A stretch of DNA of 64,000 bases. Origin: Actinomycetota bacterium (GTDB lineage Bacteria > Actinomycetota > Acidimicrobiia > Spongiisociales > UBA4744). Location: positions 12,793-76,792 of the forward strand of contig JAADGS010000092.1 of the NCBI GenBank assembly GCA_013152275.1. Reading direction: 5' to 3'. The notes under the pieces were generated by a model. That model ran no database searches, was not told the origin of the DNA, and saw only the letters and a list, made by a program, of their open reading frames with translations. Each line of letters opens with the position of its first letter. The first letter of the stretch is position 1. Of this stretch, positions 1-46,602 are shown in pieces. Made by a program: the position numbers and the translations under genes.

Positions 1-1
1 G

Positions 2-274
2 GTGGCGATCGGAGCGGTCAACGCGTCGGTCCCTCACGCCGAACTCGAGTCCTTCGCTCTCGAATGGGCGGCCGAGATCAACGCGAAGAGCCCCACGTCC
101 ATCCGGATGCTCAAGTACGCGTTCAACCTCCCCGACGACGGACTCGTCGGCCAGCAGCTCTTCGCGGGCGAGGCCACCAGGCTGGCCTATGGGACCGAGG
201 AGGCCGAAGAGGGGCGGGATGCCTTCCTCGAGAAACGCAAACCCGATTGGTCCCCCTTCCCCCATCACTTCTGA
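2..274 (+). CDS. menB: 1,4-dihydroxy-2-naphthoyl-CoA synthase (crotonase superfamily), C-terminal fragment; 5' end lies outside the window
   Basis: The translation ends ...MLKYAFNLPDDGLVGQQLFAGEATRLAYGTEEAEEGRDAFLEKRKPDW, a typical MenB C-terminus. It lies immediately upstream of menA, and its stop codon is 1 nt from the menA ATG. Confidence 0.8.
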   Translation: MAIGAVNASVPHAELESFALEWAAEINAKSPTSIRMLKYAFNLPDDGLVGQQLFAGEATRLAYGTEEAEEGRDAFLEKRKPDWSPFPHHF

Positions 275-275
275 G

Positions 276-1172
276 ATGACGCTGGATCCCACGACGAAGA
301 GCGGTGCCTGGTACCTGGCTTCGCGACCGCACACCCTGCCTGCGGCCCTCGCCCCCGTGGCGGTCGCCGCAGGGCTCGCCATCGGCGACGGTGCCTTCAG
401 ATGGGGACCGCTCATCGCAACGGCGATCGGCGCTCTCGCCATCCAGGTGGCCGCGAACTTCACCAACGATCTCTCGGATGCGCGCAAGGGCGCGGACAAC
501 GAGGACCGGATCGGCCCGCAACGTGCCGTCGCGTCCGGTCTGCTCACCGAACGTGCGATGGAGCTCGGCACCTGGGTCGCGTTCGCCGTCGCGACGGTCG
601 CAGGGGTGTATCTCTTTGCGATCGCAGGGTGGGTGATCGTGATCGTCGGGGTCGCATCGATCCTCGCGACCCTCGGCTATGTGGGCGGGCCGAAACCCTA
701 CGGGTACCGGGGCCTCGGCGAGGTGTTCGTGTTCGTGTTCTTCGGTCTCGTCGCGACCGTCGTGTCGCGTTTCGTGTATGACCGTGCGGCACCACTGGAC
801 GCCTGGCTGTTGGCGATCCCGATGGGGTTCCTGGTCACCGCCATCCTGGTGGCGAACAACGTCAGAGACATCGAGACGGACCGTAGCGCCGGCAAACGCA
901 CCCTTGCGGTGATCATGGGGCGAGATCGCACGAGGATCCTCTTCGACGTGCTCGTGTGGGGATCGTTCGTCCTGATCGGCGTGTTCGCACTCGCCGGATG
1001 GACGCCGGCCTGGACGGCGCTTGCACTGGTCACCGCTCCGCTCGCGATTCCCTTGACGGGCACGATCCATCGCGAGACGTCGGGGCCCGCGTTGATCGGC
1101 GTGCTGAAGGGGGTCGCCCGTCTCGACCTGGTGTTCGGCATTCTGGTGGCCATCGGCGCCGCAATCGGCTGA
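276..1172 (+). CDS. menA: 1,4-dihydroxy-2-naphthoate polyprenyltransferase (UbiA superfamily, about 8 TM helices)
   Basis: ATG at 276 is in frame with ORF 189..1172. The protein is a polytopic membrane protein with the UbiA-type motif NDLSDARKGADNEDRIGPQR and follows menB. The longer ORF start at 189 overlaps menB and is unlikely. Confidence 0.85.
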   Translation: MTLDPTTKSGAWYLASRPHTLPAALAPVAVAAGLAIGDGAFRWGPLIATAIGALAIQVAANFTNDLSDARKGADNEDRIGPQRAVASGLLTERAMELGTWVAFAVATVAGVYLFAIAGWVIVIVGVASILATLGYVGGPKPYGYRGLGEVFVFVFFGLVATVVSRFVYDRAAPLDAWLLAIPMGFLVTAILVANNVRDIETDRSAGKRTLAVIMGRDRTRILFDVLVWGSFVLIGVFALAGWTPAWTALALVTAPLAIPLTGTIHRETSGPALIGVLKGVARLDLVFGILVAIGAAIG

Positions 1173-1317
1173 CGGGCCTTCACGGCGCGCCCGGGACCGC
1201 TCGGCGACGGTGGGCCCGGGACGAACCGGCCGAAACTAAGGCCGAACGGCCCTACTCAAGATCAGCCCACTCCATCAGACTGAATTTGGAAACGTTATAT
1301 CGCTTGCGTGGAGGCAC

Positions 1318-3477
1318 GTGATGACCCGATTGAGATATCTCGTGGTCGGCGTTCTCGGATTGTTCCTCATTCTGTTGGTCGCAGGGTGCGACAACAAGGC
1401 CGCCGAGACGACCACGACGACGAGTCCACCACAGACCACAACCACAGCCACCGCTACCACAGCCCCGCCGACCGTCGAGCCGGCGGTGGAGATACCATTC
1501 CTCGCCGACTGGCAGGGATCCGGCCACGCCGATGCGAGCGCCGAGGCGTTCAATCACTGGAACGATGACGACCCGGCGATCATCCCCGCCCGCTGCGCGA
1601 AGTGTCACAGCACACCGGGCTTCCAGGACTACGTCGGCGCCGACGGCACCGCATTCGGGACGGTCGATGCCGACGCTGCGATCGGGACGACGGTGGAGTG
1701 CGTCGCCTGTCACAACGACGCGACCCTGAAACTCGACCATGTGACGATGCCTTCCGGTGTCGAACTCACCGGCCTCGACGCCGAGGCGCGATGCATGACC
1801 TGCCACCAGGGTCGGGCATGGAAGGGCACCGTGGACGAAGCCGTTCAGGGAATCGATGAGGACACGGTCTCCGAAGACCTCGGCTTCATCAACATCCACT
1901 ACTTCGCAGCGGCAGCGACCAAGTACGGGACCGTGACGAAGGGCGGCTACGAATACGACGGCAAGTCGTACGACGCGGTCTTCGCACATGTGGACGGATA
2001 CTCGACGTGTATCCAGTGCCACGATCAACACACGCTCGAACTCAAGGTCGACGAGTGCTCGACGTGCCACGCGGGAGTGTCGTCGGTCCAAGACCTCGAG
2101 AACATCCGGATGGCCGGCTCGGAAGTCGATTACGACGGCGATGGCGACATCACCGAAGGCATCGCCTCCGAGATCGAAGGTCTGCAAGAGAAGCTGTACG
2201 CAGCAATCCAGGCGTACGCCTCGTCCAAGGTCGGCACACCGATCGTCTACGCCGCAGAGTCGTACCCGTACTTCTTCGTCGACACGAACGCGAACGGCGA
2301 CGCCGACGGGGAGGAAGCCTCCTACGGCAACAAGTATGCGAGCTGGACCCCGCGACTCCTGAAGGCGACCTACAACTATCAGGTCTCCATCAAGGATCCC
2401 GGCGGGTATGCCCACGGCGGCAAGTACATCATCGAGCTGCTCGTCGACTCGACCGACGACCTGAACTCGGTGCTGTCATCGCCGATCGCCATGACCGACG
2501 TGCACCGCATCGACGCCGGCCACTTCGCAGGATCCGAAGCGGCGTTCCGCCACTGGGACAAAGACGGTGAGATCCCGGCGTCGTGCAGCAAGTGCCACTC
2601 GGCGACCGGTCTCCCGCTCTTCTTCAAAGAAGGCGTCACGATCGCGCAGCCGGTTTCCAACGGCCTCTTGTGCTCGACCTGCCACAGCGATCTGTCGACC
2701 TTTGATCGATACGAGGTTGCTTCGGTGACCTTCCCGAGTGGGGCAAAGATCGACAGCGGCAGCAACAACATGAACCTGTGCATGACGTGTCACCAAGGCA
2801 GGGAGTCGACCGTGTCGGTCGACAAGCTGATCGGCGACACGAAGGCCGATGTGGTGAGCGACTCGCTCCGGTTCCTGAACGTGCACTACTTCGCGGCCGG
2901 AGCGACGATCTTCGGAGACCAGGCGAAGGGCGCCTACGAGTACGCGGGCAAGACCTATGTCGGCTACAACGAGGATCACCCGCTGAACCAGTGCACCCAG
3001 TGTCACGATCAGCACGCCCTGGAAGTCCGGGTCGACAAGTGCTCGGCCTGTCACGGCACGGTCGCCACCGAGGACGACCTGCACGCCATCCGCATGTCCA
3101 GCATCGACTACGACGGTGACGGCGACACGACCGAAGGCATGTGGGACGAGATCCAAACCATGCGGGCCGACCTGCTCGCCGCCATCCAGGCCTACGCGGC
3201 CAAGACGGCGGGGGCCGAAGCGATCGTCTACGACCCGAACTCGTACCCGTACTACTTCATCGACACGAACGGCGATGGAGTGGCCGGCGCCGACGAGGCG
3301 AACTACGGAAACCGCTACGGCACATGGACACCCCGCTTGCTGCGGGCCGCGTACAACTATCAGTACGCGACGAAGGATCCGGGCGGGTTCGCCCACAACG
3401 GCGAGTACATCGTCCAGACCCTGTACGACAGCATCAAGGACGTCGGCGGCGATGTCTCGGGGATGACCCGACCGTAG
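1318..3477 (+). CDS. Decahaem c-type cytochrome lipoprotein with internal tandem duplication (two pentahaem modules, each followed by a ~150 aa haem-free domain)
   Basis: Signal peptide with lipobox LVAGC, then a Thr/Pro-rich linker (ETTTTTSPPQTTTTATATTAPPTVEP). There are 10 CxxCH motifs: CAKCH, CVACH, CMTCH, CIQCH, CSTCH, then CSKCH, CSTCH, CMTCH, CTQCH, CSACH. The two halves are clearly paralogous (e.g. ...RCMTCHQGRAWKGTVDEAV... versus ...LCMTCHQGRESTVSVDKL...; YPYFFVDTNANGD versus YPYYFIDTNGDGV). RBS GGAGG lies 8 nt upstream of the ATG. Confidence 0.9.
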   Translation: MMTRLRYLVVGVLGLFLILLVAGCDNKAAETTTTTSPPQTTTTATATTAPPTVEPAVEIPFLADWQGSGHADASAEAFNHWNDDDPAIIPARCAKCHSTPGFQDYVGADGTAFGTVDADAAIGTTVECVACHNDATLKLDHVTMPSGVELTGLDAEARCMTCHQGRAWKGTVDEAVQGIDEDTVSEDLGFINIHYFAAAATKYGTVTKGGYEYDGKSYDAVFAHVDGYSTCIQCHDQHTLELKVDECSTCHAGVSSVQDLENIRMAGSEVDYDGDGDITEGIASEIEGLQEKLYAAIQAYASSKVGTPIVYAAESYPYFFVDTNANGDADGEEASYGNKYASWTPRLLKATYNYQVSIKDPGGYAHGGKYIIELLVDSTDDLNSVLSSPIAMTDVHRIDAGHFAGSEAAFRHWDKDGEIPASCSKCHSATGLPLFFKEGVTIAQPVSNGLLCSTCHSDLSTFDRYEVASVTFPSGAKIDSGSNNMNLCMTCHQGRESTVSVDKLIGDTKADVVSDSLRFLNVHYFAAGATIFGDQAKGAYEYAGKTYVGYNEDHPLNQCTQCHDQHALEVRVDKCSACHGTVATEDDLHAIRMSSIDYDGDGDTTEGMWDEIQTMRADLLAAIQAYAAKTAGAEAIVYDPNSYPYYFIDTNGDGVAGADEANYGNRYGTWTPRLLRAAYNYQYATKDPGGFAHNGEYIVQTLYDSIKDVGGDVSGMTRP

Positions 3478-3495
3478 GGACCGCAACCCAAGCCG

Positions 3496-3523
3496 GAGGG
3501 GCCCGACGTATGTCGGGCCCCTC
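3496..3523. terminator. Perfect GC-rich hairpin (12-bp stem GAGGGGCCCGAC / GTCGGGCCCCTC, 4-nt loop) downstream of the decahaem gene; likely intrinsic (I-shaped) terminator
   Basis: Inverted repeat read directly from the sequence, 19 nt after the stop codon. There is no T-tract, as is common in high-GC actinobacteria. Confidence 0.6.
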
Positions 3524-3716
3524 TCGACAGGGAGCGCTCCCCTCCACGGGACGCCTCTCTCGTTCCATCCTTATGGTTCCGGTCCTGTGTCATCAGCACA
3601 CCTGATCAGCCTCTCTGATATACGACCATGAATGGGTCTTTTGGCCCTAGCCCAACGGGACGTCGACAAGAGAGTATCCCTTACAGATCCTGAGGATCGG
3701 AAGGAGGGACGGAGAT

Positions 3717-4913
3717 ATGAAACGATCCCTACTGCTGCTGGTAGTCGTTTTTGCAATGATTCTCGCCGCGTGTGCCGGACCGGCCGGCGACACAGGACCT
3801 GCAGGGCCCGCGGGGCCCCAAGGACCTGCCGGGCCGGCCGGACCTGCCGGACCCGCGGCGCCTGCCGCCGCAACCGTCGGAGCCGACTACGTGGGAACAC
3901 AGACGTGTGCCGGATGCCATCCGGACAACGCCGAGAAGTTCCTCAAGTCGGGACATCCGTACAAACTGAACAAGGTGGTCGACGGACAACCGCCGACGTA
4001 CCCGTTCACCGAGATCACCCAGGTTCCTGAGGGGTACACCTGGGACGACATCACGTACGTGATCGGTGGGTACAACTGGAAGGCCCGTTTCATCGGACTC
4101 GACGGTTTCATCATCACCGGCGACGAAAACGCCAAAACGCAGTACAACCTGCCGAACCCGACCATCGGGCTCGGAGACAATTGGGTCGCGTACCACGCGG
4201 GTCAACAGAAGGCGTATGACTGCGGTCCTTGTCATACGACGGGATACCGGCCCGAAGGCCATCAGGATGGACTCGAGGGGATTATCGGAACCTGGGCGGA
4301 GCCCGGGATCCAGTGTGAAGAGTGCCACGGCCCTGGAAGCAACCACGTGGCGGATCCGTATGGAGTCGCGATGAAGGTGGACGTGTCGTCCGAGGCATGT
4401 ACTTCATGTCACCGACGCGGGTCGACCCTGACGATCGACGCCAAAGGAGGATTCATCAAGCACCACGAGCAGGGTGAGGAGCTGTTGCAGACAAAGCACG
4501 CGTCCCTCAGCTGTGTCACGTGCCATGATCCGCATACAGGCGTCATCGCGCTACGTAAGGCCGGAGAGGACTTCGCAGCGAACTTCCCGTGTCAAACCTG
4601 CCACGAGGAACAGGCCGACTACCAGAAGTCGACCGTCATGTCGGGCTTCGTCAAATGCATCGACTGTCACATGCCACGGATCGTCAAGTCCGCGGTCGGT
4701 GATCCCGCTGCATGGACCGGCGACATCCGAACACACCTGTTCGCCATCGACCCCAACCTGACCAACCAGTTCTCCGAGGACGGCTCGGTAGCCAACTCGG
4801 CGATCACGCTGGATTGGGCCTGCAAGTCGTGTCACCGTGACGGTGGTACGGCGAGCGTCAAGACGGACGAGGAACTGAAGGCGACGGCCGAGGGATACCA
4901 CTCGAAACCGTAA
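3717..4913 (+). CDS. Octahaem c-type cytochrome lipoprotein with collagen-like (GPAGP)n N-terminal linker
   Basis: Signal peptide with lipobox ILAACAG, then GPAGDTGPAGPAGPQGPAGPAGPAGPAAPAAA. There are 8 CxxCH motifs: CAGCH, CGPCH, CEECH, CTSCH, CVTCH, CQTCH, CIDCH, CKSCH. RBS GGAAGGAGG precedes the ATG. Confidence 0.9.
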   Translation: MKRSLLLLVVVFAMILAACAGPAGDTGPAGPAGPQGPAGPAGPAGPAAPAAATVGADYVGTQTCAGCHPDNAEKFLKSGHPYKLNKVVDGQPPTYPFTEITQVPEGYTWDDITYVIGGYNWKARFIGLDGFIITGDENAKTQYNLPNPTIGLGDNWVAYHAGQQKAYDCGPCHTTGYRPEGHQDGLEGIIGTWAEPGIQCEECHGPGSNHVADPYGVAMKVDVSSEACTSCHRRGSTLTIDAKGGFIKHHEQGEELLQTKHASLSCVTCHDPHTGVIALRKAGEDFAANFPCQTCHEEQADYQKSTVMSGFVKCIDCHMPRIVKSAVGDPAAWTGDIRTHLFAIDPNLTNQFSEDGSVANSAITLDWACKSCHRDGGTASVKTDEELKATAEGYHSKP

Positions 4914-4936
4914 TACGCCTGAACTACCAGCAGCTC

Positions 4937-4965
4937 GAGAGGCCCGGGCAAGCCCCGGGCCTCTC
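4937..4965. terminator. GC-rich hairpin (GAGAGGCCCGGG-caagc-CCCGGGCCTCTC) followed by a T-rich stretch, downstream of the octahaem gene; likely intrinsic terminator
   Basis: 12-bp perfect inverted repeat read from the sequence, 24 nt after the stop codon. Confidence 0.6.
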
Positions 4966-5070
4966 GCTTCTTCCACCTCCCCCTCGCTACGCTCACGTGG
5001 GAGCGCCACGAGACCTCGGGAGCGTCTGGCGCTCGGCGCGTCCTCCGGCGGGAACGCAACCCTCGATCCG

Positions 5071-5433
5071 ATGACGGGAGACCGGACAGTGGACCACACA
5101 GACATCGCCCGAACGCTGCAGGAGAGAAAGCGGGTTCTCGAGACAGAGTTGGCACACCTTGTCGAGCCTCCCGTCGCCGGAACGAACCTGTCCTTCGGAA
5201 AGCGAATCGGAGACGGGACCACCGAAGCGGTCGAGCGCATCAACACCACGGCGGCGGCACGTTCTCTCGCGGCCTCCCTCGCCGCCACCGACCGGGCGCT
5301 CGCCAAACTCGACGAGGGCACCTACGGCATCTGTGACCTCTGCGGCGACGCGATACCCCGGGAACGACTCGACGCCCGCCCCACGACGGCGACGTGTGTC
5401 GACTGCAGCCGACAGGGAACTGCCACCGGTTGA
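5071..5433 (+). CDS. TraR/DksA-family C4-type zinc-finger protein
   Basis: 120 aa with a C-terminal CDLCG...(17 aa)...CVDC four-cysteine finger and an N-terminal coiled-coil-like region. This matches DksA/TraR family architecture. Confidence 0.7.
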   Translation: MTGDRTVDHTDIARTLQERKRVLETELAHLVEPPVAGTNLSFGKRIGDGTTEAVERINTTAAARSLAASLAATDRALAKLDEGTYGICDLCGDAIPRERLDARPTTATCVDCSRQGTATG

Positions 5434-5460
5434 CGGCTCGCTGGGCTCGCCGTACTTCGT

Positions 5461-5497
5461 ATCTCGTATTTCGTACTTCGTATCGCTCGGCGCGCTC
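5461..5497. repeat. Heptanucleotide tandem array (CGTAYYT)x5 with GTAC phased every 7 bp
   Basis: The sequence reads cgtactt cgtatct cgtattt cgtactt cgtatcg. A second, longer copy of the same array is at 8457-8499. Confidence 0.7.
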
Positions 5498-5498
5498 C

Positions 5499-6656
5499 TC
5501 AGGCCTCATCCTGCTTTCCGGTGACCGGCAGCGGTACGGCTCGCCCCTCGGCGGCGCTCGTGAGAGCGGCGGCGAATATCCGGTGGCCGGCCAGCGCCTC
5601 TTCGGGAGTGGCACAACCGAATCGGTCGCCCAACTCGCCTGCCCTCTCGGTGAGAAACGCCGCCCACATCTGGAGCAGGGCATCAGGAAACCCGAACTCG
5701 AAGATGGATCCCGTGATGGTGGGGAAGACGGAAGCGTGTCCGGGCTGGATCTCTTCCCACATCTGCCGGCCCGACGGATCGATACGAAAGCGGCGCACGA
5801 TCTGGGGCGAACGGGTCGAGAAAGACACCCCGCCCTCCATGCCCAGCACTTCGAACGTCCAGGTGTTGGACTGGCCGGGAGCGATTCGCTTGGTCTCGAG
5901 ATGAAGCGGGAACGAACCCTCCGCAGAGTCGATGGTGCAGACGAGGGAGGCGTTGTCGATGGTGTCACAGGCGACCGGCTCACCGTTCGGTCCAGGCCGG
6001 TGGGTAACGATGTCCTGAAGGGTTGCGTACACCGAGGTGGGGAGCCACCCGAGCCGGAGCGGAACATGGACGACGTGCATACCGAGGTCCCCCATGACTC
6101 CGATCTCGCCACACGTGGCGACCTTGCGCTTCCAATTGATCGGCTTGTCCCGGTTCATGTCGGATGAGTGGAGCAACGCTGCGCGCGCCTCGATGATCTG
6201 GCCGAGACGACCGGAGGCGACCTCGGCCATCGCCATCTGCGCACCCGGGAAGAACGGCAGCTCCGACGAGCAGCGCGAGAAGACGCCCGAGTCTCCTACC
6301 GCGGTGACGATGGACTGCGCCGTCGGAAGGTCGATACCGAACGGCTTCTCCCCGAAGAGGTCGATGCCCGCATCGAGGACGTCACGGTAGATGGCGCCGT
6401 GAAGGACGTGTGGGACCGCAACGTACACGACGTCGAGGCCGGCCTCGATGAGCCGGGCGTGGTCACCGGTTGTCATCTCCACCGTGTCGATCTGCTCGAA
6501 CCAGGCTCTCCGCTCGGCGTCGATGTCGCAGACGGCGACGAGGCGGGGAACCACGGGAACGTCCAGGAGTGCCATCCAGCGACCGAACGCCGCGGCGGCC
6601 TCGCGGCCCATCAAGCCGCCACCGATGATCCCGACGCGTACCTGTCGAGCCATCAT
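5499..6656 (-). CDS. Gfo/Idh/MocA-family NAD(P)-dependent oxidoreductase
   Basis: N-terminal Rossmann motif MMARQVRVGIIGGGLMG with a typical GFO_IDH_MocA N and C domain arrangement. Its start overlaps the aldolase stop (ATGA). The longer ORF to 6875 is an Arg-rich antisense extension. Confidence 0.8.
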   Translation of the reverse strand: MMARQVRVGIIGGGLMGREAAAAFGRWMALLDVPVVPRLVAVCDIDAERRAWFEQIDTVEMTTGDHARLIEAGLDVVYVAVPHVLHGAIYRDVLDAGIDLFGEKPFGIDLPTAQSIVTAVGDSGVFSRCSSELPFFPGAQMAMAEVASGRLGQIIEARAALLHSSDMNRDKPINWKRKVATCGEIGVMGDLGMHVVHVPLRLGWLPTSVYATLQDIVTHRPGPNGEPVACDTIDNASLVCTIDSAEGSFPLHLETKRIAPGQSNTWTFEVLGMEGGVSFSTRSPQIVRRFRIDPSGRQMWEEIQPGHASVFPTITGSIFEFGFPDALLQMWAAFLTERAGELGDRFGCATPEEALAGHRIFAAALTSAAEGRAVPLPVTGKQDEA

Positions 6657-7483
6657 GCGGCGTCGAGATGCTCGACGGCCTCCTCGGGGGTCCAGCCTCG
6701 ATGAAGTATCCCCATCAGCGCCTGGGTGATGACGGCGGGCTTCGGATGCTGGACGATGTTCCGGCCGTACACGATCCCGGCCGCACCTTGCTCCAGGACG
6801 GCGGCCGTCCGCCGGAAGAGCTCGGCGGAATCGACCTTGCCGCCACCACGAACGAGAACCGGGATCGGTGCACATGCCTCGATCACGTCCCCGTAGCGGT
6901 CCGCCGGGTCGCTGGGATCCGCCTTCACGACGTCCGCTCCCAGCTCGACGGCCTGACGAGCCAGAGCCTTGATCCGGTCCACGTCGCGGACCCCGGTGTA
7001 GGCGCCTCCGTCGGGGCGCATCACCAGCGGCTCGACCATGAGCGGCATCGCCGCCAGGTCGCAGGCGGCGCGCAGTGCCATGACGTTACGAACGCACGCG
7101 CGGTGCAGCTCGGGGCGACCGTCGATGTCGAGGAGGTTCACGACCACGCACGCGGCGTCGAGCCGAACGGCCTGGCCCACCGCGTCCTCGATCAGCTCGG
7201 AGAACGGGCGGTCCGGCACGTCGGAGCCGTAGACGTTGGCGATGTCGGTCCGCAACACGAGCGCCGGTCGCGGGCGAACGGGCATCGACTGGAGAAGCCT
7301 CGCCTGCCCGGGAGAGAGTTGGATGGCGTCGGGTGCGGCTTCGACAAGGCTTGCGATGACGCTCGGCATGTGCGCGATGCCTTGAAGGAAGCCGGGCTCG
7401 TTGAAGAAGCCGTGGTCGACGGCCACGTCCAGGCAACGCTCGGAGACCGGATCGAACAGTCGGTGTAGCCGCGGGCCATTCAT
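6653..7483 (-). CDS. Class I aldolase of the DhnA/FbaB/LsrF family
   Basis: 276 aa. N-terminus RLHRLFDPVSERCLDVAVDHGFFNEPGFLQG resembles DhnA-type class I fructose-bisphosphate or sulfofructose-phosphate aldolases. Its ends overlap the adjacent kinase and oxidoreductase genes. Confidence 0.7.
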   Translation of the reverse strand: MNGPRLHRLFDPVSERCLDVAVDHGFFNEPGFLQGIAHMPSVIASLVEAAPDAIQLSPGQARLLQSMPVRPRPALVLRTDIANVYGSDVPDRPFSELIEDAVGQAVRLDAACVVVNLLDIDGRPELHRACVRNVMALRAACDLAAMPLMVEPLVMRPDGGAYTGVRDVDRIKALARQAVELGADVVKADPSDPADRYGDVIEACAPIPVLVRGGGKVDSAELFRRTAAVLEQGAAGIVYGRNIVQHPKPAVITQALMGILHRGWTPEEAVEHLDAA

Positions 7484-8445
7484 CTGTCTGGTTCCTCCAG
7501 CCCGGCCATGCGCCAGGCTTCGTCGGGATCGTTCAGTCCGGCGAATGTCTCGCTGGCGGTGGCTGCCAGGGCACCGAGGGCGGTGCCCAGCCGGACGGCT
7601 TTCGGCGATGGTAGGCCCCGCAGGAGGCCGATGAGGACACCGGCCGTGAAGGCGTCTCCTGCACCGGTACTATCGACCGAGTCGACCTCGATTGCGGCCA
7701 CATGGCCACGTGTCTCGTCACAGTCGAACCAGCAGCCGTCGACTCCGTCGGTGACGACGGCCACCCGCACCCCTCGCCGTCTCAGCTCGGCGGCGGCGTC
7801 CTCGGGAGCGGATTCGCCCGTGATCGCCCGAGCCTCGGCCAGACTGGGGCAGAACAGGTCGGTGTGGGCAAGAGCCGGGTTCACCAGGTCCCAGTCGTTG
7901 GCGGCGTTGTAGACGACGTCGAGGCTGGTCTGCATCCCGTTCCGCTTGGCGTGGGCGAAGAGCTCTGCAAGGGGCTCGCCGTCGAGTGCCGGCAGCACCA
8001 GCGCACCTCCGACGTGGAGAAACCGCCCTTTCGTCCGCTCACGGATGTGCTCGGCGGTGAGGAATCGGTTGGCTCCGATCTGATGGAAGATGGTGCGCTC
8101 ACCGGCGTCGTCGACCAGGATGGCCGACGACGAGGTGTTGGCGTCGACCTCCACCCATCGGGTGTCGAGCCTGTCGCCCTCCACCGACCGGCGGAGTACC
8201 TCGCCGAAGAGATCCGGGCCGACCGGAGCGATCAGCGTCGTGCCGACCCCCATGCCGGCGAGTGCCCTGGCGGTGCGAAGCGCGCATCCGCCTTCCACCA
8301 GTGTCAGGTCGTCGACCAGTTGCAGGAGGCCGAGCGGAAAGGGGTGGCGGACGGTGCGGACAACGACGTCGCACACCGCTATGCCGGCACAGGTCACCTC
8401 GACCGAGGTCACGGCATCACCGGCGAATCGCCGGCGGTCGGGCAT
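7480..8445 (-). CDS. PfkB-family carbohydrate (sugar/sugar-acid) kinase
   Basis: Ribokinase-like fold motifs: an N-terminal di-Gly region, and the C-terminal DSTGAGDAFTAGVLIGLL anion-hole/ATP motif. The likely start is MPDRRRF at 8445, because the upstream part of the ORF covers the heptamer repeat. Confidence 0.8.
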   Translation of the reverse strand: MPDRRRFAGDAVTSVEVTCAGIAVCDVVVRTVRHPFPLGLLQLVDDLTLVEGGCALRTARALAGMGVGTTLIAPVGPDLFGEVLRRSVEGDRLDTRWVEVDANTSSSAILVDDAGERTIFHQIGANRFLTAEHIRERTKGRFLHVGGALVLPALDGEPLAELFAHAKRNGMQTSLDVVYNAANDWDLVNPALAHTDLFCPSLAEARAITGESAPEDAAAELRRRGVRVAVVTDGVDGCWFDCDETRGHVAAIEVDSVDSTGAGDAFTAGVLIGLLRGLPSPKAVRLGTALGALAATASETFAGLNDPDEAWRMAGLEEPDR

Positions 8446-8456
8446 TCGAGAGACTC

Positions 8457-8499
8457 CGTACTTCGTACTTTGTATCTCGTACTTTGTACTTCGTATCGC
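8457..8499. repeat. Heptanucleotide tandem array (YGTAYYT)x6, second copy; lies 12 bp upstream of the PfkB kinase start
   Basis: The sequence reads cgtactt cgtactt tgtatct cgtactt tgtactt cgtatcg. It shares the flanks ccgtacttcgta...tcgtatcgc with the 5461 copy. Confidence 0.7.
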
Positions 8500-8569
8500 G
8501 ACCTCGCGTCGATGCAAGACCGTGGGGCGGGCGTGGCCGCTCCCACGGACGACCGATCACCGACGACCG

Positions 8570-10135
8570 TCAATACCCCTGCGCCGGGGTGTGACACTGC
8601 GTGCACTTGATCTGTTTCCACGCGTCTCCGATGTCGACAGGATGCTGGAAGGCAAGACCGGCCACGCTGTTCTCGATGTCGGCGAGGTTGTCCGAGGGGC
8701 CCTGGGCGGCGATCGTATGACACGAGTTGCACGAAGAGGAGATCCGTGTCCCGTCATCGCTCTCCAGATCCGAGAAGTGGCACCGGAAACAGCCGTCGTT
8801 GACAAAGTGGCTGAGGTTGTCCTCGCGGGCCCGGTAGTCGGTCTTCATCTCCGGGAAGAAGTTGGCGTCGTAGATGCGCACCAGGGTGTCGGCGGCCTTC
8901 TCGACCTGGCCCTGATCCACCTTGCCGGGATACTGCTTCGCGTAGTAGGCCAGGAGCCCGGACCGGATCGCCTCGTCTGCCTCCGGTTTCGTGTCATATG
9001 GCGCGTTGAGCAAGGTCAGCCCCTGCCAGCGGACGAACGGGAGGTCCTTGGAGATCGTGCCCTTGGTCATCTCGAGGTTGATCGCCGTCGCCGGAGGGAG
9101 GAAGTCGTGACTGGGCCGGTTGTGGCAGTCCATGCAGTCCAAGATACGAACTTCGACGTCGGGCGAATCGGGATCGACCACCGCATCGGGACGCTTGAAG
9201 ACGGTGACCTTCCCCGTCTCGCCGTCCGTGAACCGCACCCAGATCATCTGCTGGCGCTTCTTGTCGGTCGTCACGTATTCGATCTTGTTCTCGCCGAGCA
9301 TGTGCCAGTGGATGCCCTCCTGCTTGCCGGTTCGGGGGTTCCCCCCACCGACTTTCATGAGCAGACTGATCGTCCACGGCGAGTTCGCCTCGTTGGTCCG
9401 GTAGTACGTTTTCGTGACGAGCTTCTCGCCATAGAACTGATCGGGCCAGTGGCATCCCTCACAGGTCTGTTGAGCAGGTCGCAGACTCGTCACCGGTGTC
9501 GGCACGGGACGGTCGTACGAGTTGGTCAGCACCGCCACCACCTGGCGGATACCGTCGATCTTGGCGCGCACGAAGAACGATGCGCCGGGGCCGATGTGGC
9601 ACTCTGCACAGGCGACGCGAGCGTGCGGAGACTGCTGATAGGTGACCCACTGTGGGTTCATCACCGTGTGGCACGCCTCCCCGCAGAACGTTGCGGAGTC
9701 GGTGACTTCGTACCCCTTGTAACCACCCCAGGCGACCGTGCCGAGCAACATCGCCGTGAGGATGCCGAACAGCGCAAGGGAGCGCATGTACCGGGGGTTC
9801 GACGGCTCGAACCGAAGGTTGAACCGGACGTGTTCTCCGCGCCGGCGAGCCCTGACGACCTGGATGCGGATGGCGAGCAGGAAGAGGATGAGGCCGAGCA
9901 GAACCACCGAGGGAAAACCGATGAATGTGACGAGTCCTCGATACGGGTTGCCGGCGGGTGAACTCAGGTCGACGAATGCGAGGATGGCGAACCCGAGTAT
10001 CCCGGCGACGACGAGCGCGCCGCCCACCGCAGCCAAAGGATGGCGGTAGAGGCTCCTGCCCTCGACCGCCTCGGCCTTGGTCTCGCTCTCCCTGTCACTC
10101 ACGCTCGATCCCTCCTCAACCGATCTCTGATCCAC
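8570..10135 (-). CDS. Membrane-anchored heptahaem c-type cytochrome (N-terminal TM helices plus 7 CxxCH); ImcH-like putative quinol oxidase
   Basis: Two N-terminal hydrophobic helices (ALVVAGILGFAILAFV; VTFIGFPSVVLLGLILFLLAI; SLALFGILTAMLLGTVAW). The 7 CxxCH motifs are CGEACH, CAECH, CEGCH, CMDCH, CFRCH, CNSCH, CTQCH. It is the last gene of the minus-strand cytochrome operon. Confidence 0.85.
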   Translation of the reverse strand: MDQRSVEEGSSVSDRESETKAEAVEGRSLYRHPLAAVGGALVVAGILGFAILAFVDLSSPAGNPYRGLVTFIGFPSVVLLGLILFLLAIRIQVVRARRRGEHVRFNLRFEPSNPRYMRSLALFGILTAMLLGTVAWGGYKGYEVTDSATFCGEACHTVMNPQWVTYQQSPHARVACAECHIGPGASFFVRAKIDGIRQVVAVLTNSYDRPVPTPVTSLRPAQQTCEGCHWPDQFYGEKLVTKTYYRTNEANSPWTISLLMKVGGGNPRTGKQEGIHWHMLGENKIEYVTTDKKRQQMIWVRFTDGETGKVTVFKRPDAVVDPDSPDVEVRILDCMDCHNRPSHDFLPPATAINLEMTKGTISKDLPFVRWQGLTLLNAPYDTKPEADEAIRSGLLAYYAKQYPGKVDQGQVEKAADTLVRIYDANFFPEMKTDYRAREDNLSHFVNDGCFRCHFSDLESDDGTRISSSCNSCHTIAAQGPSDNLADIENSVAGLAFQHPVDIGDAWKQIKCTQCHTPAQGY

Positions 10136-10201
10136 GCTAGTCGATCGGCCCTCACCGGCCTCACGACCGACCGTCTCTTCTTGTCGAACCTGTTCCTCGA
10201 A

Positions 10202-11461
10202 TCAGCCTTGCGGCGCGCCGGCGCCGATCCATGCCTTCACCAACGCCAGGTCCTCGTCCGTGAACTTGCCGAAATGCGACCCGTCCCCCACTTTGACGAT
10301 CACATGGCTCGCATCCGCATCACCGGCCACGAACCCGGGCTCACCACTATCACCCCCGGCCAGCAACCCCGCATACGACGTAACGTCCAGACCGGAGGCC
10401 GGCGCACTGCCACCGTGACATGACCCGCACGCCGCCTCGAACACCGCCGCCACACCGGAGTTCCATGTCACGCCGGCAGAAGCCGCCGTGGTCGAGGGCG
10501 TCGCAGCCGACGTGGTCGCCGACGCGGCCGCGGTCGTCGTCGGAGCCGCGGTCGTCGGTGGAAGGGTCGTCGTGGGAGGCGTGGTCGACGGTGGAAGGGT
10601 CGTCGTCGGCAGCGGCGTGTAGATGGGTCCGGCGAGCGGCGAAGGCGCGACGGTCGTGATCGCCGTCTGCTCGAACGTCACGAACTCGTAGACCCCCATC
10701 AGCATCACGGCGGCCAGGACGGTGAAGGCCGGCCAGTACCTGAGCGCTCGGTTGCGTCGCTCCTCGGGATCGGTCTCGATCCGATCCGTTTCCGCGTCGA
10801 TCGTGGCCAGTTCGAGCGGGTGGAGCTCTTTCATCTGGGCACGCGACAGGTACCCGGTGAAGATCGAAGGGTTGAAGTGCCGCCAATGGACGTCGTAGGA
10901 GTGCCAGACGATGATGGCCAGCACGGCGAGGACCGCCTCCCAACCGTGGGCCGCCTTGGCCGCCGGCACGAAGACCCCCGGGAGGAACCGGGTGGTGGCG
11001 ATCGGATTCCAGAGCATGAAGCCGGTCACCGCCATCAGTACGGTGCCCCACACCAGCGACCAGTACTCCATCTTCTCGCCGACCGTATACCGGCCCTCGG
11101 GAGGCGGGCCCGACGCCAAACCGAGGTTGAACCTGATCCAGCCCCACGCGGCCGACAGGTCCGCCTTCCCCGGGATCAGCGAATGGGGTCTGCGGAGCAC
11201 GAAGCGCTTGTAGCCCAGCACACCGAGGTGGTACACGAGCGAGAGCAGCAGAATGGTTGCGAGAATGTGGTGGATTCTGCGGGTGTAGTCGATCCCTCCG
11301 AAGAGCCCGATGATCCAGTCCGAGAACCAGCGGTCGGCGTATTTCTGCACCAGTCCGGTGATCGCCAGACCGGTGAACGTGATGACCTGGACGGCGTGCT
11401 CGATCCGGTCCGACACCGTGAACCTCAGGATCTTCTCGTCGGGACGCGTCGTCTCAGTCAT
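10202..11461 (-). CDS. Dihaem cytochrome b (FdnI/HydC/CybH-like membrane domain) fused via a Pro/Thr-rich linker to a C-terminal monohaem cytochrome c domain
   Basis: The N-terminal ~250 aa has 4-5 TM helices with conserved His residues (RIEHAVQV, RRIHHILATI, AAHGWEAV...VWHSYDVHWRH). The linker reads PLPTTTLPPSTTPPTTTLPPTTAAPTTTAAASATTSAATPSTTAASAG. The C-terminal domain carries CGSCHG. The start overlaps the nonahaem gene end by 8 nt. Confidence 0.85.
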   Translation of the reverse strand: MTETTRPDEKILRFTVSDRIEHAVQVITFTGLAITGLVQKYADRWFSDWIIGLFGGIDYTRRIHHILATILLLSLVYHLGVLGYKRFVLRRPHSLIPGKADLSAAWGWIRFNLGLASGPPPEGRYTVGEKMEYWSLVWGTVLMAVTGFMLWNPIATTRFLPGVFVPAAKAAHGWEAVLAVLAIIVWHSYDVHWRHFNPSIFTGYLSRAQMKELHPLELATIDAETDRIETDPEERRNRALRYWPAFTVLAAVMLMGVYEFVTFEQTAITTVAPSPLAGPIYTPLPTTTLPPSTTPPTTTLPPTTAAPTTTAAASATTSAATPSTTAASAGVTWNSGVAAVFEAACGSCHGGSAPASGLDVTSYAGLLAGGDSGEPGFVAGDADASHVIVKVGDGSHFGKFTDEDLALVKAWIGAGAPQG

Positions 11462-12554
11462 GTCGTCGCCTCCTGAGGCGAGCGGCGAGCCTTCTCCGCA
11501 CGTCGAGTCCCACGGCGAGGAGCATCGCGCCGATCACGAGCGGGATGAGGATCTTGTAGAACATGTTCACCCAGTACACGAGCGGGGCCTCGGTGGTGCT
11601 CGGCGCATAGTGACTCAGCCATGCGTCGGGGAAGTTCGCCGTGGCATCCGGGTGGCACCGCCGGCACGTGCCGAGCAGATTCTTCTTGTACACGGAGCTG
11701 TCCGTGTCGCTGGGCGCCTTGATGTCATGAACACCGTGACAATCGACGCACACGGGCTTGTTCGTGTCCTGACCGGGAGCCAGCTTCTCGAAGAGAACGA
11801 CCGTCGTGCCGTGAAAGTCCGACAGGTACGAACTGAACACGTTCGTGGAGATGCCGTACTTGTCCATCAGGGCCTTGTTGGCGTGACAGTCCGCGCAGAT
11901 CTGCGGCGAGAACAGCCGGAACGGCGAATCGTCATGCGGACCCTTCACGTCATGGACGCCGTGACAGTCCGTGCAGGTCGGGACGTCCGGGTTGCCGGTC
12001 GTGAGCGCCTCCCCGTGCACGCTGTCCTCGTAGGCGTTGTAGATCTCCGAATGACATTTCCTGCACATCAGCGGAATGTTGGTTCGAGGCTCGCCGGGCG
12101 GTTGGACGTTGTGGGAACCGTGGCAGTCGGTGCAGACGGCCGCCTCCGTGACGCCGGCCTGGCGTGCGAGCTCGTGGTCGCTGTCGCGAGTCCCCGTGTA
12201 CTCGGAGTAGTGGCACGTCGCACAGGACGTATACATCTGTAGCGTGAAGCCGCGGCGGCTCTCGGCGGTGATCGGAGCGTGCGGATACGTGGAGATGTCC
12301 GTGTGACAGAGAACGCACGCCACATCGAGCTTGCCGTGAACCGAATCGGCGTACTCGTGACCGTCGACGGCAATGTCGAGCGTCTCCCCCGAGGGCAGTG
12401 GTATTCCCAGCGAGCTTCCCTCGTGACAGGAGAGACAGTAGGAGTTGTCCCACCGAGGGTCGGTCTGCGCGGCTGCCCGAGATTGCCCACCGAGCAGGAT
12501 CGCCGTACCGATGATCAGTGCACCGAGTACAACGATCCTTCTACATCTTTGCAT
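11454..12554 (-). CDS. Nonahaem c-type cytochrome, secreted, with a C-terminal transmembrane anchor
   Basis: Sec signal peptide (cleavage near AAAQT). The 9 CxxCH motifs are CLSCH, CVLCH, CATCH, CTDCH, CRKCH, CTDCH, CADCH, CVDCH, CRRCH. The C-terminal hydrophobic helix ILIPLVIGAMLLAVGL is followed by RRRLAARLRRRRHD. Confidence 0.9.
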   Translation of the reverse strand: MQRCRRIVVLGALIIGTAILLGGQSRAAAQTDPRWDNSYCLSCHEGSSLGIPLPSGETLDIAVDGHEYADSVHGKLDVACVLCHTDISTYPHAPITAESRRGFTLQMYTSCATCHYSEYTGTRDSDHELARQAGVTEAAVCTDCHGSHNVQPPGEPRTNIPLMCRKCHSEIYNAYEDSVHGEALTTGNPDVPTCTDCHGVHDVKGPHDDSPFRLFSPQICADCHANKALMDKYGISTNVFSSYLSDFHGTTVVLFEKLAPGQDTNKPVCVDCHGVHDIKAPSDTDSSVYKKNLLGTCRRCHPDATANFPDAWLSHYAPSTTEAPLVYWVNMFYKILIPLVIGAMLLAVGLDVRRRLAARLRRRRHD

Positions 12555-12615
12555 GCGCGAACTGTCTCTTTTCCGAGTTGCGCCCCCACTCTAAGTACGG
12601 GTCCTCCATCCCCTC

Positions 12616-12633
12616 GGGACCTTTGGACCTTTG
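12616..12633. promoter_or_regulatory. Tandem direct repeat GGACCTTT GGACCTTT in the 106-bp region upstream of the cytochrome b/c operon; candidate operator
   Basis: Read directly from the sequence. It is the only intergenic space upstream of 12554. Confidence 0.3.
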
Positions 12634-12660
12634 CCGACCGCAAAAGACCCTTACTGGATC

Positions 12661-13965
12661 TCAGAGCCCGGCGAGGATCTCTCGCAAAGAGGGGCCCTTG
12701 ACGATCTCGATCCCGTAGGTGACGCGCGTTCCCGGCATGTCGAGGTCCAGCAGCGGAAGCAGATTGACCGGTGTGGCGACAACCACGACTTCGGGGTTCG
12801 CCCGCCTGATCGTTTCGGCGAGTTCGGCCCGCTGCTCTTCTCCGTAGCCCATCGCCGGGAGGAGCCGGCCGATGTGGGAGAACTTCGCAAACGTGTCGGC
12901 GATCGAACCGACGGCGAAGGGACGAGGGTCGATCAACTCGGCCGCCCCGAACTGCCTGGAGGCGATGACACCGGCACCGTACGCCATACCGCCGTGGGTC
13001 AGCGTCGGTCCATCCTCGACGACAAGCACACGCCTGCCGGCGATGAGGTCCGGGTCGGCGACGGTGATCGGCGAGTGGGCCTCGAGCACGACCGCGCTCG
13101 GGTTCGCCTCCCTCACGTCGGCGAGCACCGCGGCCACGTTCTTCTCCTCCGCAGTGCCGACCTTGTTGATCATCACCACATCGGCGCGCCGCAGGTTGGC
13201 CTCGCCCGGCCAGTATCTCAGTTCATGCCCCGGGCGGTGCGGGTCGACGACACAGATGTGCAGGTCGGGCCGGTAGAAGGGAAGATCGTTGTTCCCGCCG
13301 TCCCAGAGGATGACATCGGCTTCCTGCTCGGCGAGACGCAAGATCGCCTCGTAATCGACACCGGCGAAGATGACGCCGCCCTGCTCGATGTACGGTTCGT
13401 ACTCCTCGCGCTCTTCGATCGAGCAATCCGCGTCGATGAGGTCCTGATTGCTCGCGAACCGCTGAACCGCCTGTCTGACGAGATCTCCATAGGGCATGGG
13501 GTGGCGAATCGCCGCGACGCGTCTCCCCGCGGCGTTGAGCGTATGCCAGACGGCACGGCTGGTCGGAGATTTCCCCGCGCCCGTTCTGGCGGCCGTGACG
13601 GCGACGACGGGCAGGTCCGAAGGGATCATCGTCTGCGCACCGGGAAGCTCGTAGGAGGCGCCTGCCGCCACGGCACGCGCAGCGAGGTGCATCACGTGCT
13701 CGTGGGTGACGTCCGAATAGGCGAAGACGACCCGATCGACGTTGTAGACGGCGATCAGACGTTCCATGTCCTCCTCGGGGAGGATCGGGATCCCGTACGG
13801 ATACAACTCGCCCGCCAGCGATGCGGGATACCTCCTGCCGTCGATGTTCGGAATCTGTGTGGCGGTGAACGCCACGACGTCATAGTGAGGATCGTCCCGG
13901 TACAGAACGTTGAAGTTGTGAAAGTCCCGTCCGGCAGCCCCCAGAATCAGTATCCGTTCGCTCAT
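12661..13965 (-). CDS. Rossmann-like plus P-loop NTPase domain protein (cyclic 2,3-diphosphoglycerate synthetase-like or DUF1611-like); function uncertain
   Basis: Start MSERILILGAAGRDFHNF is preceded by GGAGG. The internal Walker-A-like motif is VTAARTGAGKSPTS. Length is 434 aa. The longer ORF to 14022 lacks an RBS. Confidence 0.55.
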   Translation of the reverse strand: MSERILILGAAGRDFHNFNVLYRDDPHYDVVAFTATQIPNIDGRRYPASLAGELYPYGIPILPEEDMERLIAVYNVDRVVFAYSDVTHEHVMHLAARAVAAGASYELPGAQTMIPSDLPVVAVTAARTGAGKSPTSRAVWHTLNAAGRRVAAIRHPMPYGDLVRQAVQRFASNQDLIDADCSIEEREEYEPYIEQGGVIFAGVDYEAILRLAEQEADVILWDGGNNDLPFYRPDLHICVVDPHRPGHELRYWPGEANLRRADVVMINKVGTAEEKNVAAVLADVREANPSAVVLEAHSPITVADPDLIAGRRVLVVEDGPTLTHGGMAYGAGVIASRQFGAAELIDPRPFAVGSIADTFAKFSHIGRLLPAMGYGEEQRAELAETIRRANPEVVVVATPVNLLPLLDLDMPGTRVTYGIEIVKGPSLREILAGL

Positions 13966-14022
13966 TGCGACCTCCGTAACAACAGTCCCACTATTGTCGC
14001 CGGATCGAGGGAACGCTCCCAA

Positions 14023-14775: not shown

Positions 14776-14783
14776 GGACTGTA

Positions 14784-20230: not shown

Positions 20231-20389
20231 CTTACCCCCAAGGCTACCGGGTGATCGTTCCTGTCGCTGCCACCGGCGGCCGGTCATCGGGCGACAGCCG
20301 GTCGTCGGCGGGTAGAAATCGCGACGCTCGCCCCACGGTCCTGGTGCCGGACAGGTCGCGATACCGGGTACCCGGAAGGTCACTAGCCT

Positions 20390-46599: not shown

Positions 46600-46602
46600 G
46601 AC

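Follow-up and report, generated by a model that had tools for sequence, protein, structure and literature searches.

Tethered multiheme cytochromes and putative quinol dehydrogenases at a conserved locus of Acidimicrobiia and Chloroflexota: a candidate conduit for extracellular electron transfer

Five cytochrome genes in a 64-kb window

The locus described here belongs to an Actinomycetota bacterium of the class Acidimicrobiia (assembly GCA_013152275.1) and was analyzed within a window of 64,000 nucleotides, positions 12,793 to 76,792 of contig JAADGS010000092.1; coordinates below are those of the window. It holds five cytochrome genes, which we call A to E. The G+C content of the window is ~65%, so mechanical lists of its open reading frames (ORFs) are crowded with spurious frames. 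Cytochrome genes were picked by a six-frame scan for CX2CH motifs, combined with the G+C content at third codon positions (GC3), over the whole 64 kb. Five credible genes emerge, all of them high-GC3 ORFs (GC3 0.73 to 0.85, typical of the genes in the window). Genes A (1321..3477, + strand; 718 aa, 10 CX2CH) and B (3717..4913, + strand; 398 aa, 8 CX2CH) encode a decaheme and an octaheme lipoprotein. The products of the other three, all on the − strand, are C (8570..10135; 521 aa), with six CX2CH motifs and a CX3CH at residue 151, D (10202..11461; 419 aa), with a single CX2CH, and E (11454..12554; 366 aa), with nine.

The first-pass annotation of this DNA had credited the five cytochromes with 35 CxxCH motifs. 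There are in fact 34 CX2CH motifs and one CX3CH, so the total of 35 is correct once the CX3CH of protein C is included in the count. Elsewhere in the 64 kb only two lone CX2CH motifs occur, each in a short ORF (5717..6007, + strand, which has low GC3 and lies antisense to a GFO-type gene; and 52576..52821, − strand), and the clustering of heme motifs in A to E is far beyond chance. Proteins A, D, and E are identical to NCBI entries NOY57118.1, NOY57124.1, and NOY57125.1 from an Actinobacteria/Actinomycetota bacterium bin. The architectures initially read for the five proteins are present, with lipoboxes, linkers, helices, and heme motifs all confirmed.

Protein A, a tandem decaheme lipoprotein

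The N-terminus of protein A consists of a hydrophobic segment followed by the lipobox VAG-C22 (within LLVAG-C) and a Thr/Pro-rich linker, DNKAAETTTTTSPPQTTTTATATTAPP (lipobox cysteine and linker: residues 22-58, 1384..1494, + strand). Residues 23-54 are disordered in the predicted structure. Lipoboxes in A and B were judged against the pattern [LVI][ASTVI][GAS]C. The remainder of the chain is divided into two modules, residues ~59-390 (1495..2490, + strand) and ~391-718 (2491..3474, + strand), each with five hemes and a helical domain, and the two are 45% identical over 326 aa (E 2e-96). Foldseek returns OcwA and OmhA as the top matches of the A model, and the pentaheme modules share the NrfA/OcwA fold. 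OcwA of Thermincola potens (6I5B) and OmhA of Carboxydothermus ferrireducens (6QVM) are terminal reductases of the cell surface and S-layer in Gram-positive iron reducers. When the PDB is searched by sequence, A has no significant match, either as a single sequence or as a family profile, and the profile finds neither NrfA nor OcwA. Given the internal repeat and the shared fold, we regard A as a tandem duplication of an NrfA/OcwA-fold pentaheme module. It thus has the NrfA-like pentaheme fold in common with OcwA and OmhA, but is built as 2 x 5 hemes and has no sequence-level match to them.

Histidines outside the heme motifs are strongly conserved in both modules. H69, H193, H223, H237, and H365 are invariant in module 1; the same holds in module 2 for H401, H522, H565, and H692, with H552 close to invariant. 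Between heme 3 and heme 4, each module has a segment with many invariant His, Tyr, and Arg residues. Each module also carries an invariant acidic motif, (V/I)DYDGDGD-x(2-3)-EG (residues 266-280 and 594-606; ~2116..2160 and ~3100..3138), which resembles a calcium-binding loop. It follows heme 5 and does not coincide with the calcium site of NrfA.

The comparison with MtrC and OmcA that the first-pass annotation had proposed leaves A below the family cut-offs. The score with Pfam PF22113, 22.1 bits, falls short of the cut-off of 30, TIGR03507 gives no match, and the non-heme parts of the A model are helical, whereas MtrC/OmcA proteins have β-barrel domains I and III; membership in that family was rejected. 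Neither A nor B matches the Pfam NrfA family PF02335, and the sole Nrf-related NCBIfam match of A is the model for the NrfB pentaheme accessory subunit, far below its cut-off.

The A family is large, with more than 5300 database matches at ~60% identity. Among 81 relatives inspected at their genome loci, 78 have ten heme motifs and 47 keep the lipobox; some relatives have a plain signal peptide in place of lipobox and linker. Relatives from Acidimicrobiia retain the lipobox together with a Thr-rich linker. In many Chloroflexota relatives the linkers consist of VEVTRVVEV(P/E) repeat units or of Cys-rich CPxCP repeats, both without obvious precedent (ten loci, and five more). Twelve versions reach ~1030-1080 aa, a length that by itself suggests three modules; the two that carry a taxon name come from Abyssubacteria (Abyssobacteria) bins. 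One further relative, of 1223 aa (P0178), has added immunoglobulin-like domains.

Protein B, an octaheme lipoprotein on a collagen-like stalk

Protein B likewise has a hydrophobic segment and a lipobox (LAA-C19, within ILAA-C19). After the lipobox cysteine comes a collagen-like stalk in which nine G-X-Y triplets run without interruption (residues 21-47), GPAGDTGPAGPAGPQGPAGPAGPAGPA; lipobox cysteine and stalk together span 3771..3857 on the + strand. Seventeen cysteines are present, 16 in the eight heme motifs, all of which are CX2CH, and one in the lipobox, and nine non-motif histidines are conserved for the eight hemes. All 34 relatives examined at genome loci have eight heme motifs, and 27 of them keep the lipobox. 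In the best 120 relatives, at least four uninterrupted G-X-Y triplets precede the first heme in 113 (mode 11, maximum 30), and a lipobox-like motif is found in 101. The Pfam Collagen model scores 17.8 bits on B of the window, below the cut-off of 27.2, and is a precomputed match for many relatives. The stalk may form a trimer. A literature search for collagen-like stalks on multiheme cytochromes or lipoproteins found nothing relevant in searchable papers. Linkers that could span a thick wall had been ascribed to both lipoproteins at the first reading; the tethers as such are real, as the persistence of the B stalk in 113 of 120 relatives and of linkers in relatives of A attests.

In a phmmer search of the PDB, B finds OcwA (6i5b, E 1e-11) and OmhA (6qvm, E 5.7e-10), with homology that covers the c554-like hemes 1 to 4 and beyond. 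MccA (E 0.017) and NrfA (E 0.2) are far weaker matches by sequence. The predicted structure, with a predicted local distance difference test (pLDDT) score of 77.8, matches MccA, OmhA, and OcwA about equally well, at E-values of 1e-10 to 1e-8: MccA is the best Foldseek match (E 1.3e-10), followed by OmhA (2.3e-9) and OcwA (3.5e-9; TM-score 0.51 on the query and 0.43 on the target). The model includes the β-sheet domain seen in OcwA and OmhA, only short C-terminal helices, and a disordered stretch at residues 21-54. B is thus related to OcwA and OmhA in sequence and shares their fold, but it has eight hemes rather than 9 or 11, only ~340 mature residues, and no long C-terminal helices, such as those that form the C-terminal three-helix bundle of OcwA. 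A further difference is that both A and B are lipoproteins on long tethers.

We also considered B as an octaheme sulfite reductase of the MccA type. In MccA, as Hermann and colleagues reportedly described in 2015, heme 8 is bound by a CX15CH motif and a copper site is formed by two extra cysteines. B has neither a CX15CH motif nor a spare cysteine, and the assignment was rejected, though the likeness in fold remains. The only Nrf-related NCBIfam matches of B are to the NrfB and NrfH models, far below cut-off.

Protein C, an ImcH-type heptaheme cytochrome

By its sequence features, protein C is an ImcH-type heptaheme quinol dehydrogenase of the NapC/NirT/NrfH superfamily. Its membrane domain (residues 1-135; 9731..10135, − strand) comprises three helices located by hydropathy scan (37-55, 71-89, and 117-135), and heme motifs start at residues 151 (CGEACH, 151-156), 176, 225, 334, 449, 469, and 511. 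C matches Pfam PF03264 (NapC/NirT; E 1.9e-10) and, in the PDB, NrfH (2j7a_C; E 2.4e-6); its match to the NCBIfam NrfH model (E 4.6e-15) is below the cut-off.

ImcH proteins have been described as ~500 residues long, with three helices, a CX3CH motif beside them, and six CX2CH motifs (PMC6295460). For the Geobacter protein GSU3259 (507 aa), the heme motifs are listed at 132, 156, 205, 311, 428, 448, and 486, and the helices at 13-35, 45-67, and 100-122 (PMC6295460, Table S3). Protein C, with 521 aa, or 510 aa from an alternative start, has the same three N-terminal helices, CX3CH beside helix 3, and six CX2CH, and when these published coordinates, rather than the sequences, are compared, the two proteins are offset by 19 to 25 residues at the heme motifs and by 17 to 26 at the helix starts. 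Both contain an NrfH-like region, and in C an invariant lysine follows heme 2. This residue, Lys192, is 100% conserved in relatives, and Met159 is 94% conserved; from position alone, Lys192 is inferred to be equivalent to K173 of ImcH and K82 of NrfH.

The surroundings of C differ from those of ImcH. The partner proposed for the Geobacter protein is a periplasmic triheme cytochrome, whereas C is linked to the genes for A, E, and D, a linkage unreported for Geobacter imcH. Because the host has a single membrane, the partner of C would not be a periplasmic triheme cytochrome.

The C family yields 3903 matches. C of the window is 57-60% identical to proteins from Zixibacteria or Acidobacteria, and no Geobacter protein is found among the best 120 to 150 matches listed for C and D. 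The nine relatives of C of the Acidimicrobiia type have the canonical layout, in which the CX3CH is preceded by all three helices. In Chloroflexota versions there is a single helix, and the number of hemes ranges from 7 to 14; a one-helix ImcH form was recorded in Anaerolinea thermophila in a 2018 survey (PMC6295460), and a dedicated search for ImcH in Anaerolineae found nothing relevant in searchable papers. A second ImcH-type protein (NOY54926.1 / GBD84577.1), 61% identical to C, is encoded in the same bin series and in the bin BMS3Abin02, on another contig of 177-183 kb, so the lineage may carry two ImcH-like quinol dehydrogenases.

Proteins E and D, a split CbcL-type bc complex

Protein E has a signal peptide, nine heme motifs (each at least 98% conserved), nine conserved non-motif histidines, and a C-terminal membrane helix found by hydropathy scan (residues 332-350; 11505..11561, − strand), after which comes an Arg-rich tail, RRRLAARLRRRRHD. 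Its gene overlaps that of D by 8 nt, which suggests that the two proteins are made together. D begins with an FdnI-type cytochrome b domain (Pfam PF01292; PDB FdnI 1kqf_C, E 3.7e-9). Its helices start at residues 20, 66, 136, 167, and 245, four of them of the FdnI type and the fifth equivalent to the sixth helix of CbcL; H22, H64, H78, H172, and H187 are invariant. The b domain is followed by a Thr/Pro/Ala-rich linker read from the ORF translation (residues ~264-330; 10472..10672, − strand) and a PSCyt1-type monoheme c domain (10205..10471, − strand; Pfam PF07635, E 1.7e-9) with CGSCH at residue 345.

The architectural match of this pair is CbcL, in which a nonaheme c domain is joined to a HydC/FdnI-like diheme b domain. 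According to the published Table S2 coordinates, CbcL GSU0274 has nine CX2CH motifs and helices starting at 285, 351, 399, 477, 511, and 589. Comparison of published coordinates, rather than of sequences, gives D the spacing of CbcL helices 2 to 6, with E supplying helix 1, six helices in all; helix 1 begins 28 residues past the last heme motif in GSU0274 and 35 residues past it in E. The histidines follow the same pattern. In CbcL the early helices contain one His apiece and the fifth contains two, and D has one in each of b-domain helices 1 and 2 (H22, and H64 or H78) and two in helix 4 (H172 and H187). Unlike CbcL, the E-D pair is made of two polypeptides, its first four heme motifs are spaced differently, and no His is present in the E helix; D ends in a linker and a monoheme c domain that CbcL lacks.

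Fused relatives connect the two forms. Single-chain proteins of 600-650 aa with nine hemes occur in Anaerolineae (P0401), Schekmanbacteria (P0485), and two further entries (P0478 and P0479). They match E over its full length (34-56% identity, E 1e-52 to 1e-136) as well as D (37-53% identity, E 1e-48 to 1e-88), and for this reason we take E-D to be a split form of the CbcL architecture. Since the c and b parts are encoded by two genes, the pair is filed as a split variant rather than as a strict member of the CbcL/MtoC/MtrH group. Geobacter CbcBA offers a precedent for the two-subunit layout.

The C-terminal part of D varies widely. D relatives have from none to at least six PSCyt1-type monoheme copies (two in P0380, three in P0377, five in P0375, and six in P0374), separated by low-complexity linkers rich in Pro, Thr, and Glu, like beads on a string. 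Up to ten heme motifs past the b domain are found in some relatives; most Chloroflexota copies adjoining A have none.

Conservation and gene linkage

One genome per species was scanned for relatives of A, which were found in at least 554 species; linkage was counted within 10 kb of A in the best 80. These 80 species belong mainly to Acidimicrobiia and to Chloroflexota, the latter with Anaerolineae, Caldilineae, Ardenticatenia, Promineifilaceae, and Thermoflexales. The closest match among those listed, from an unclassified bin, is 82% identical to A, and the nearest with a taxon name is in an Acidimicrobiia bin (L007, 69%). Relatives of A at 95% identity are present in the genome bins BMS3Abin02 and BMS3Bbin01; bins so labelled we take to derive from deep-sea massive sulfide deposits, a mineral habitat.

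The synteny survey in related genomes that the first reading had called for shows E, D, B, and C recurring near A across Chloroflexota and Acidimicrobiia. Of the 80 loci, 51 have E inside the 10-kb limit, 46 have D, 33 have B, and 31 have C. Of the 35 loci with complete flanks, 25 have both E and D, 16 have B, 15 have C, and 31 have one or more of B to E. The conserved unit is E-D-A with B and/or C. Chloroflexota usually have the genes on a single strand in the order B-E-D-A, and in Acidimicrobiia A stands beside E-D-C. In one Actinomycetota bin the module is adjacent to genes of cytochrome c maturation, which encode CcmF, CcmH, and a thioredoxin-like protein.

The menaquinone genes behave differently. 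That the cytochromes are embedded in a menaquinone locus, as the first-pass annotation had it, is true of the window and lineage-specific: menA is found beside A at 2 of the 80 loci (L006, at 82%, and L074, a weak 29% match), in the two copies of the close relative BMS3Abin02, and at none of the 35 loci with full flanks. With menA linkage limited to the closest relatives, the men locus was rejected as part of the system.

In an Anaerolineae bin (L004/L005, 12529..18172), an E-D-C-A operon extends into three further elements. The first is a cytochrome of 751 aa that strongly matches the MtrC/MtrF domain II/IV family of Pfam, the second a small multiheme cytochrome, and the third a 4Fe-4S protein together with an NrfD-type membrane subunit. 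This 4Fe-4S/NrfD-type pair would represent a third type of module that interacts with quinol.

Neighboring genes

The initial description of the five genes as a single 11-kb block does not hold, as they are not contiguous. The interval between B and C contains four unrelated genes, encoding a DksA/TraR zinc finger protein (5071..5433, + strand), a GFO/IDH oxidoreductase, a DeoC/DhnA aldolase, and a pfkB kinase. The last three are on the − strand (within 5071..8517, an interval that includes the DksA/TraR gene on the + strand), directly downstream of E-D-C on the same strand. The gap from the cytochrome genes to the first of these sugar-type genes is 52 to ~157 nt, depending on the start codon chosen for the kinase, and cotranscription with E-D-C is possible. 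The interposed pfkB/aldolase/GFO/DksA-like arrangement is found only in this lineage, which shares it with the close relative BMS3Abin02.

As to the wider setting, the cluster is flanked by menA (189..1172, + strand; NCBIfam NF004751, 308.9 bits against a cut-off of 264) and by menD, menF, and an α/β hydrolase gene, as had been noted at first; the order beyond the cluster, however, is menD, menF, hydrolase, and a gene for a 453-aa conserved protein intervenes between E and menD (12661..14022, − strand). That protein has no Pfam or NCBIfam family, only weak P-loop-like matches to LpxK and CobW.

A CBS-BON domain protein and a divergent GAF/HisKA_3 sensor kinase/LuxR-type response regulator pair are encoded beside the men genes (18484..21511), and the kinase-regulator pair is a candidate regulator of the region. 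Farther along are genes for a mannosylglycerate synthase (61253..62488, + strand), a pyruvate:ferredoxin oxidoreductase (52714..56103, + strand), and a CoxLMS-type molybdenum hydroxylase with CoxG (46141..50421, − strand). Mannosylglycerate synthase is a compatible-solute gene common in thermophiles and halophiles. Read from their annotations, these metabolic genes hint at an organotroph that tolerates low oxygen in a warm or saline habitat. Promoter and terminator scans of 1..14800 find sites no more often than in shuffled sequence, and Rfam and tRNA scans of the window give no match.

A proposed outward electron conduit

We propose that the five genes encode a conduit for extracellular electron transfer (EET) that works outward, a reading that we hold to be probable, if only modestly so. 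Two quinol dehydrogenases working in parallel, C and E-D, would oxidize menaquinol on the outer side of the cytoplasmic membrane. In C, the quinol site would lie at the first heme, on the CX3CH motif, with Met159 and Lys192 nearby as in NrfH and ImcH; in E-D, an FdnI-like diheme b domain with four His ligands (D) would be paired with a nonaheme c protein held by one helix (E). Electrons would then travel along the seven hemes of C and the nine of E to the monoheme domain of D, which may swing on its ~65-residue linker, and to the lipid-anchored A and B. Judging from their anatomy, the tethers, a Thr/Pro linker of ~36 residues in A and the nine-triplet stalk in B, would hold these two proteins within or beyond the wall. 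Standard geometry gives a rough estimate of reach of ~8 nm for nine collagen triplets, up to ~12 nm for the A linker, and up to ~20 nm for the D linker. In the last step, A and B would pass electrons to an acceptor outside the cell that is insoluble or large, for example humic material, a partner cell, or minerals of Fe(III) or Mn(IV).

What argues for this scheme is that the closest characterized relative or architectural match of every protein is, as judged from sequence and predicted fold, an EET system or a quinol dehydrogenase serving one: ImcH for C, CbcL for E plus D, and OcwA/OmhA for B by sequence and for A by fold. All heme c domains of A to E are predicted to lie outside the cytoplasm, so that the topology check raised at the outset, which turned on whether the cytochromes might be intracellular, comes out in favor of an extracytoplasmic location. 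The concept is also that of the conduit model which Carlson and colleagues are said to have put forward in 2012 for Thermincola potens, with ImdcA, PdcA, CwcA, and OcwA: a multiheme relay from membrane through wall to surface in a single-membrane cell. The present proteins differ from that model in having quinol dehydrogenases of the Geobacter type and in being lipid-anchored and tethered rather than separate and wall-embedded.

Several observations weigh against the proposal. The folds of A and B are of the NrfA and MccA types. Five conserved non-motif histidines per A module fit five bis-His hemes as well as four bis-His hemes plus an NrfA-like catalytic His. No wall-spanning or S-layer component is encoded in the window. 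Many carriers of the module are activated-sludge Chloroflexota, which to our knowledge are not recognized as metal reducers. Finally, Ardenticatena maritima, an EET-capable Chloroflexota isolate, has no cytochrome with more than seven hemes, and hence has neither A nor B.

The folds in particular raise the question of whether A and/or B are catalytic. They might form an extracytoplasmic reductase for soluble nitrite, hydroxylamine, NO, sulfite, or tetrathionate, fed by C and E-D in the manner of NrfHA or MccACD. Several features recall these systems: the A modules resemble the NrfA fold, B resembles the MccA fold, has MccA as the best match of its model (E 1.3e-10), and has eight hemes as MccA does, and C is homologous to NrfH and so corresponds to an NrfH-type membrane partner. 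OcwA itself has two five-coordinate hemes and turns over nitrite (weakly) and hydroxylamine, and the invariant His, Tyr, and Arg residues between hemes 3 and 4 of the A modules are what an active-site pocket might display. The hallmarks of the known enzymes are nevertheless missing. No CXXCK motif is present in any of the five proteins, A and B are not recognized as NrfA by Pfam or NCBIfam, the A profile retrieves no NrfA from the PDB, and B has no CX15CH and no cysteines to spare for the copper site of MccA. The sequence of B is also far closer to OcwA and OmhA (1e-11 and 6e-10) than to MccA (0.017) or NrfA (0.2). Conserved non-motif histidines suffice for bis-His ligation throughout, with ten in A, nine for the eight hemes of B, and nine in E, and the gene context is one of EET-type quinol dehydrogenases instead of an nrf or mcc operon. 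Thirty-five hemes, two quinol dehydrogenases, and long rigid tethers are moreover hard to justify for a diffusible substrate. We therefore consider a soluble-substrate reductase unlikely. The first-pass annotation had named such homologs as grounds for abandoning the conduit; that objection is weakened by the absent NrfA and MccA hallmarks and, with the folds shared, not eliminated. The conduit itself stands as far as homologies, external heme domains, and tethers carry it; the case is one of homology, and against a reductase role it tells only in degree.

The same wire could in principle be used mainly in the opposite direction, in a form of lithotrophic uptake. A and B would then draw electrons from a partner cell, a surface that acts like a cathode, reduced minerals, or dissolved Fe(II), and E-D would reduce menaquinone or supply an oxidase or nitrate reductase whose genes lie elsewhere. 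CbcL/MtoC/MtrH homologs are found in Fe(II) oxidizers as well as in Fe(III) reducers, which makes inward uptake possible, and A. maritima performs both anodic and cathodic EET. The closest relatives of the locus are in BMS3-labelled bins, presumably from metal-sulfide deposits in which reduced minerals are abundant. Reports of ImcH homologs, however, are to date confined to Fe(III) reducers, where the proteins are interpreted as quinol oxidases, and the transfer of electrons from Fe(II) to menaquinone is energetically uphill by established bioenergetics. The window, too, is of an organotrophic cast, with pyruvate:ferredoxin oxidoreductase, amino-acid transporters, and other genes of that type, and contains no carbon-fixation or oxidase genes. 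We judge inward transfer to be quite unlikely. Still more remote, to the point of being negligible, is the idea that the cluster is an accident of spurious ORFs, which high-GC DNA produces in number, or a set of unexpressed pseudogenes. The GC3 values are those of genes in the window, heme motifs and ligand histidines are conserved across hundreds of genomes, three of the five proteins are identical to deposited NCBI gene calls, and the gene order is conserved across phyla; by this conservation, chance or decay is effectively refuted.

Novelty and implications

The outward conduit that we favor is not the first sign of EET in these phyla. That such systems were undescribed in high-GC actinobacteria, as stated in the first-pass annotation, is out of date. 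Iron-reducing Anaerosomatales isolates with multiheme cytochromes, including an OcwA homolog, have been reported (PMC9686372), as have Coriobacteriales genome bins rich in multiheme cytochromes (PMC7399161) and an ImcH homolog in Intrasporangium calvum (PMC6295460). ImcH and CbcL homologs are on record beyond the Proteobacteria, with a single ImcH homolog each in Actinobacteria and Chloroflexi (PMC6295460). Actinobacteria and Anaerolineales bins rich in multiheme cytochromes and an Fe(III)-reducing Acidimicrobiaceae isolate have also been published. In searchable papers we found no description of the conserved module, of the tandem decaheme family A, of the collagen-stalked octaheme family B, or of a split CbcL with a tethered cytochrome string, and nothing relevant on BMS3Abin02.

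We tentatively suggest, as a possibility that falls somewhat short of probable, that the B-E-D-A unit, whether or not C is present, forms a hitherto undescribed EET system of two single-membrane phyla, represented by Chloroflexota and Acidimicrobiia, in which the wall is crossed by modular tethers rather than by wall-embedded relays. The tether kit would then comprise a lipid-anchored octaheme protein on a collagen-like stalk, a lipid-anchored tandem decaheme protein on lineage-variable linkers (Thr-rich, Val/Glu-repeat, or CPxCP), and a quinol-oxidizing cytochrome b with a variable string of tethered monoheme domains.

The molecular workings of multiheme EET in single-membrane cells are established for only a few Firmicutes, and Chloroflexota and Actinomycetota are known in this respect from lists of cytochrome genes. 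The locus described here is a defined, conserved, and recognizable module of hundreds of species, with two putative quinol dehydrogenases and two tethered candidate terminal cytochromes. It makes it possible to test whether abundant filamentous Chloroflexota and Acidimicrobiia respire minerals, humics, or partner cells, by what route electrons get across a thick wall, and whether collagen-like stalks and monoheme strings serve as spacers with a defined length. Marker genes for metagenomic surveys of iron cycling would be a further gain. Should the proteins prove to be oxyanion reductases, they would still represent a large unnamed branch of the NrfA/MccA/OcwA superfamily. If the EET reading is true, marine Acidimicrobiia and many of the abundant Chloroflexota that live in sediments and activated sludge respire minerals or humic material without having been recognized as doing so.

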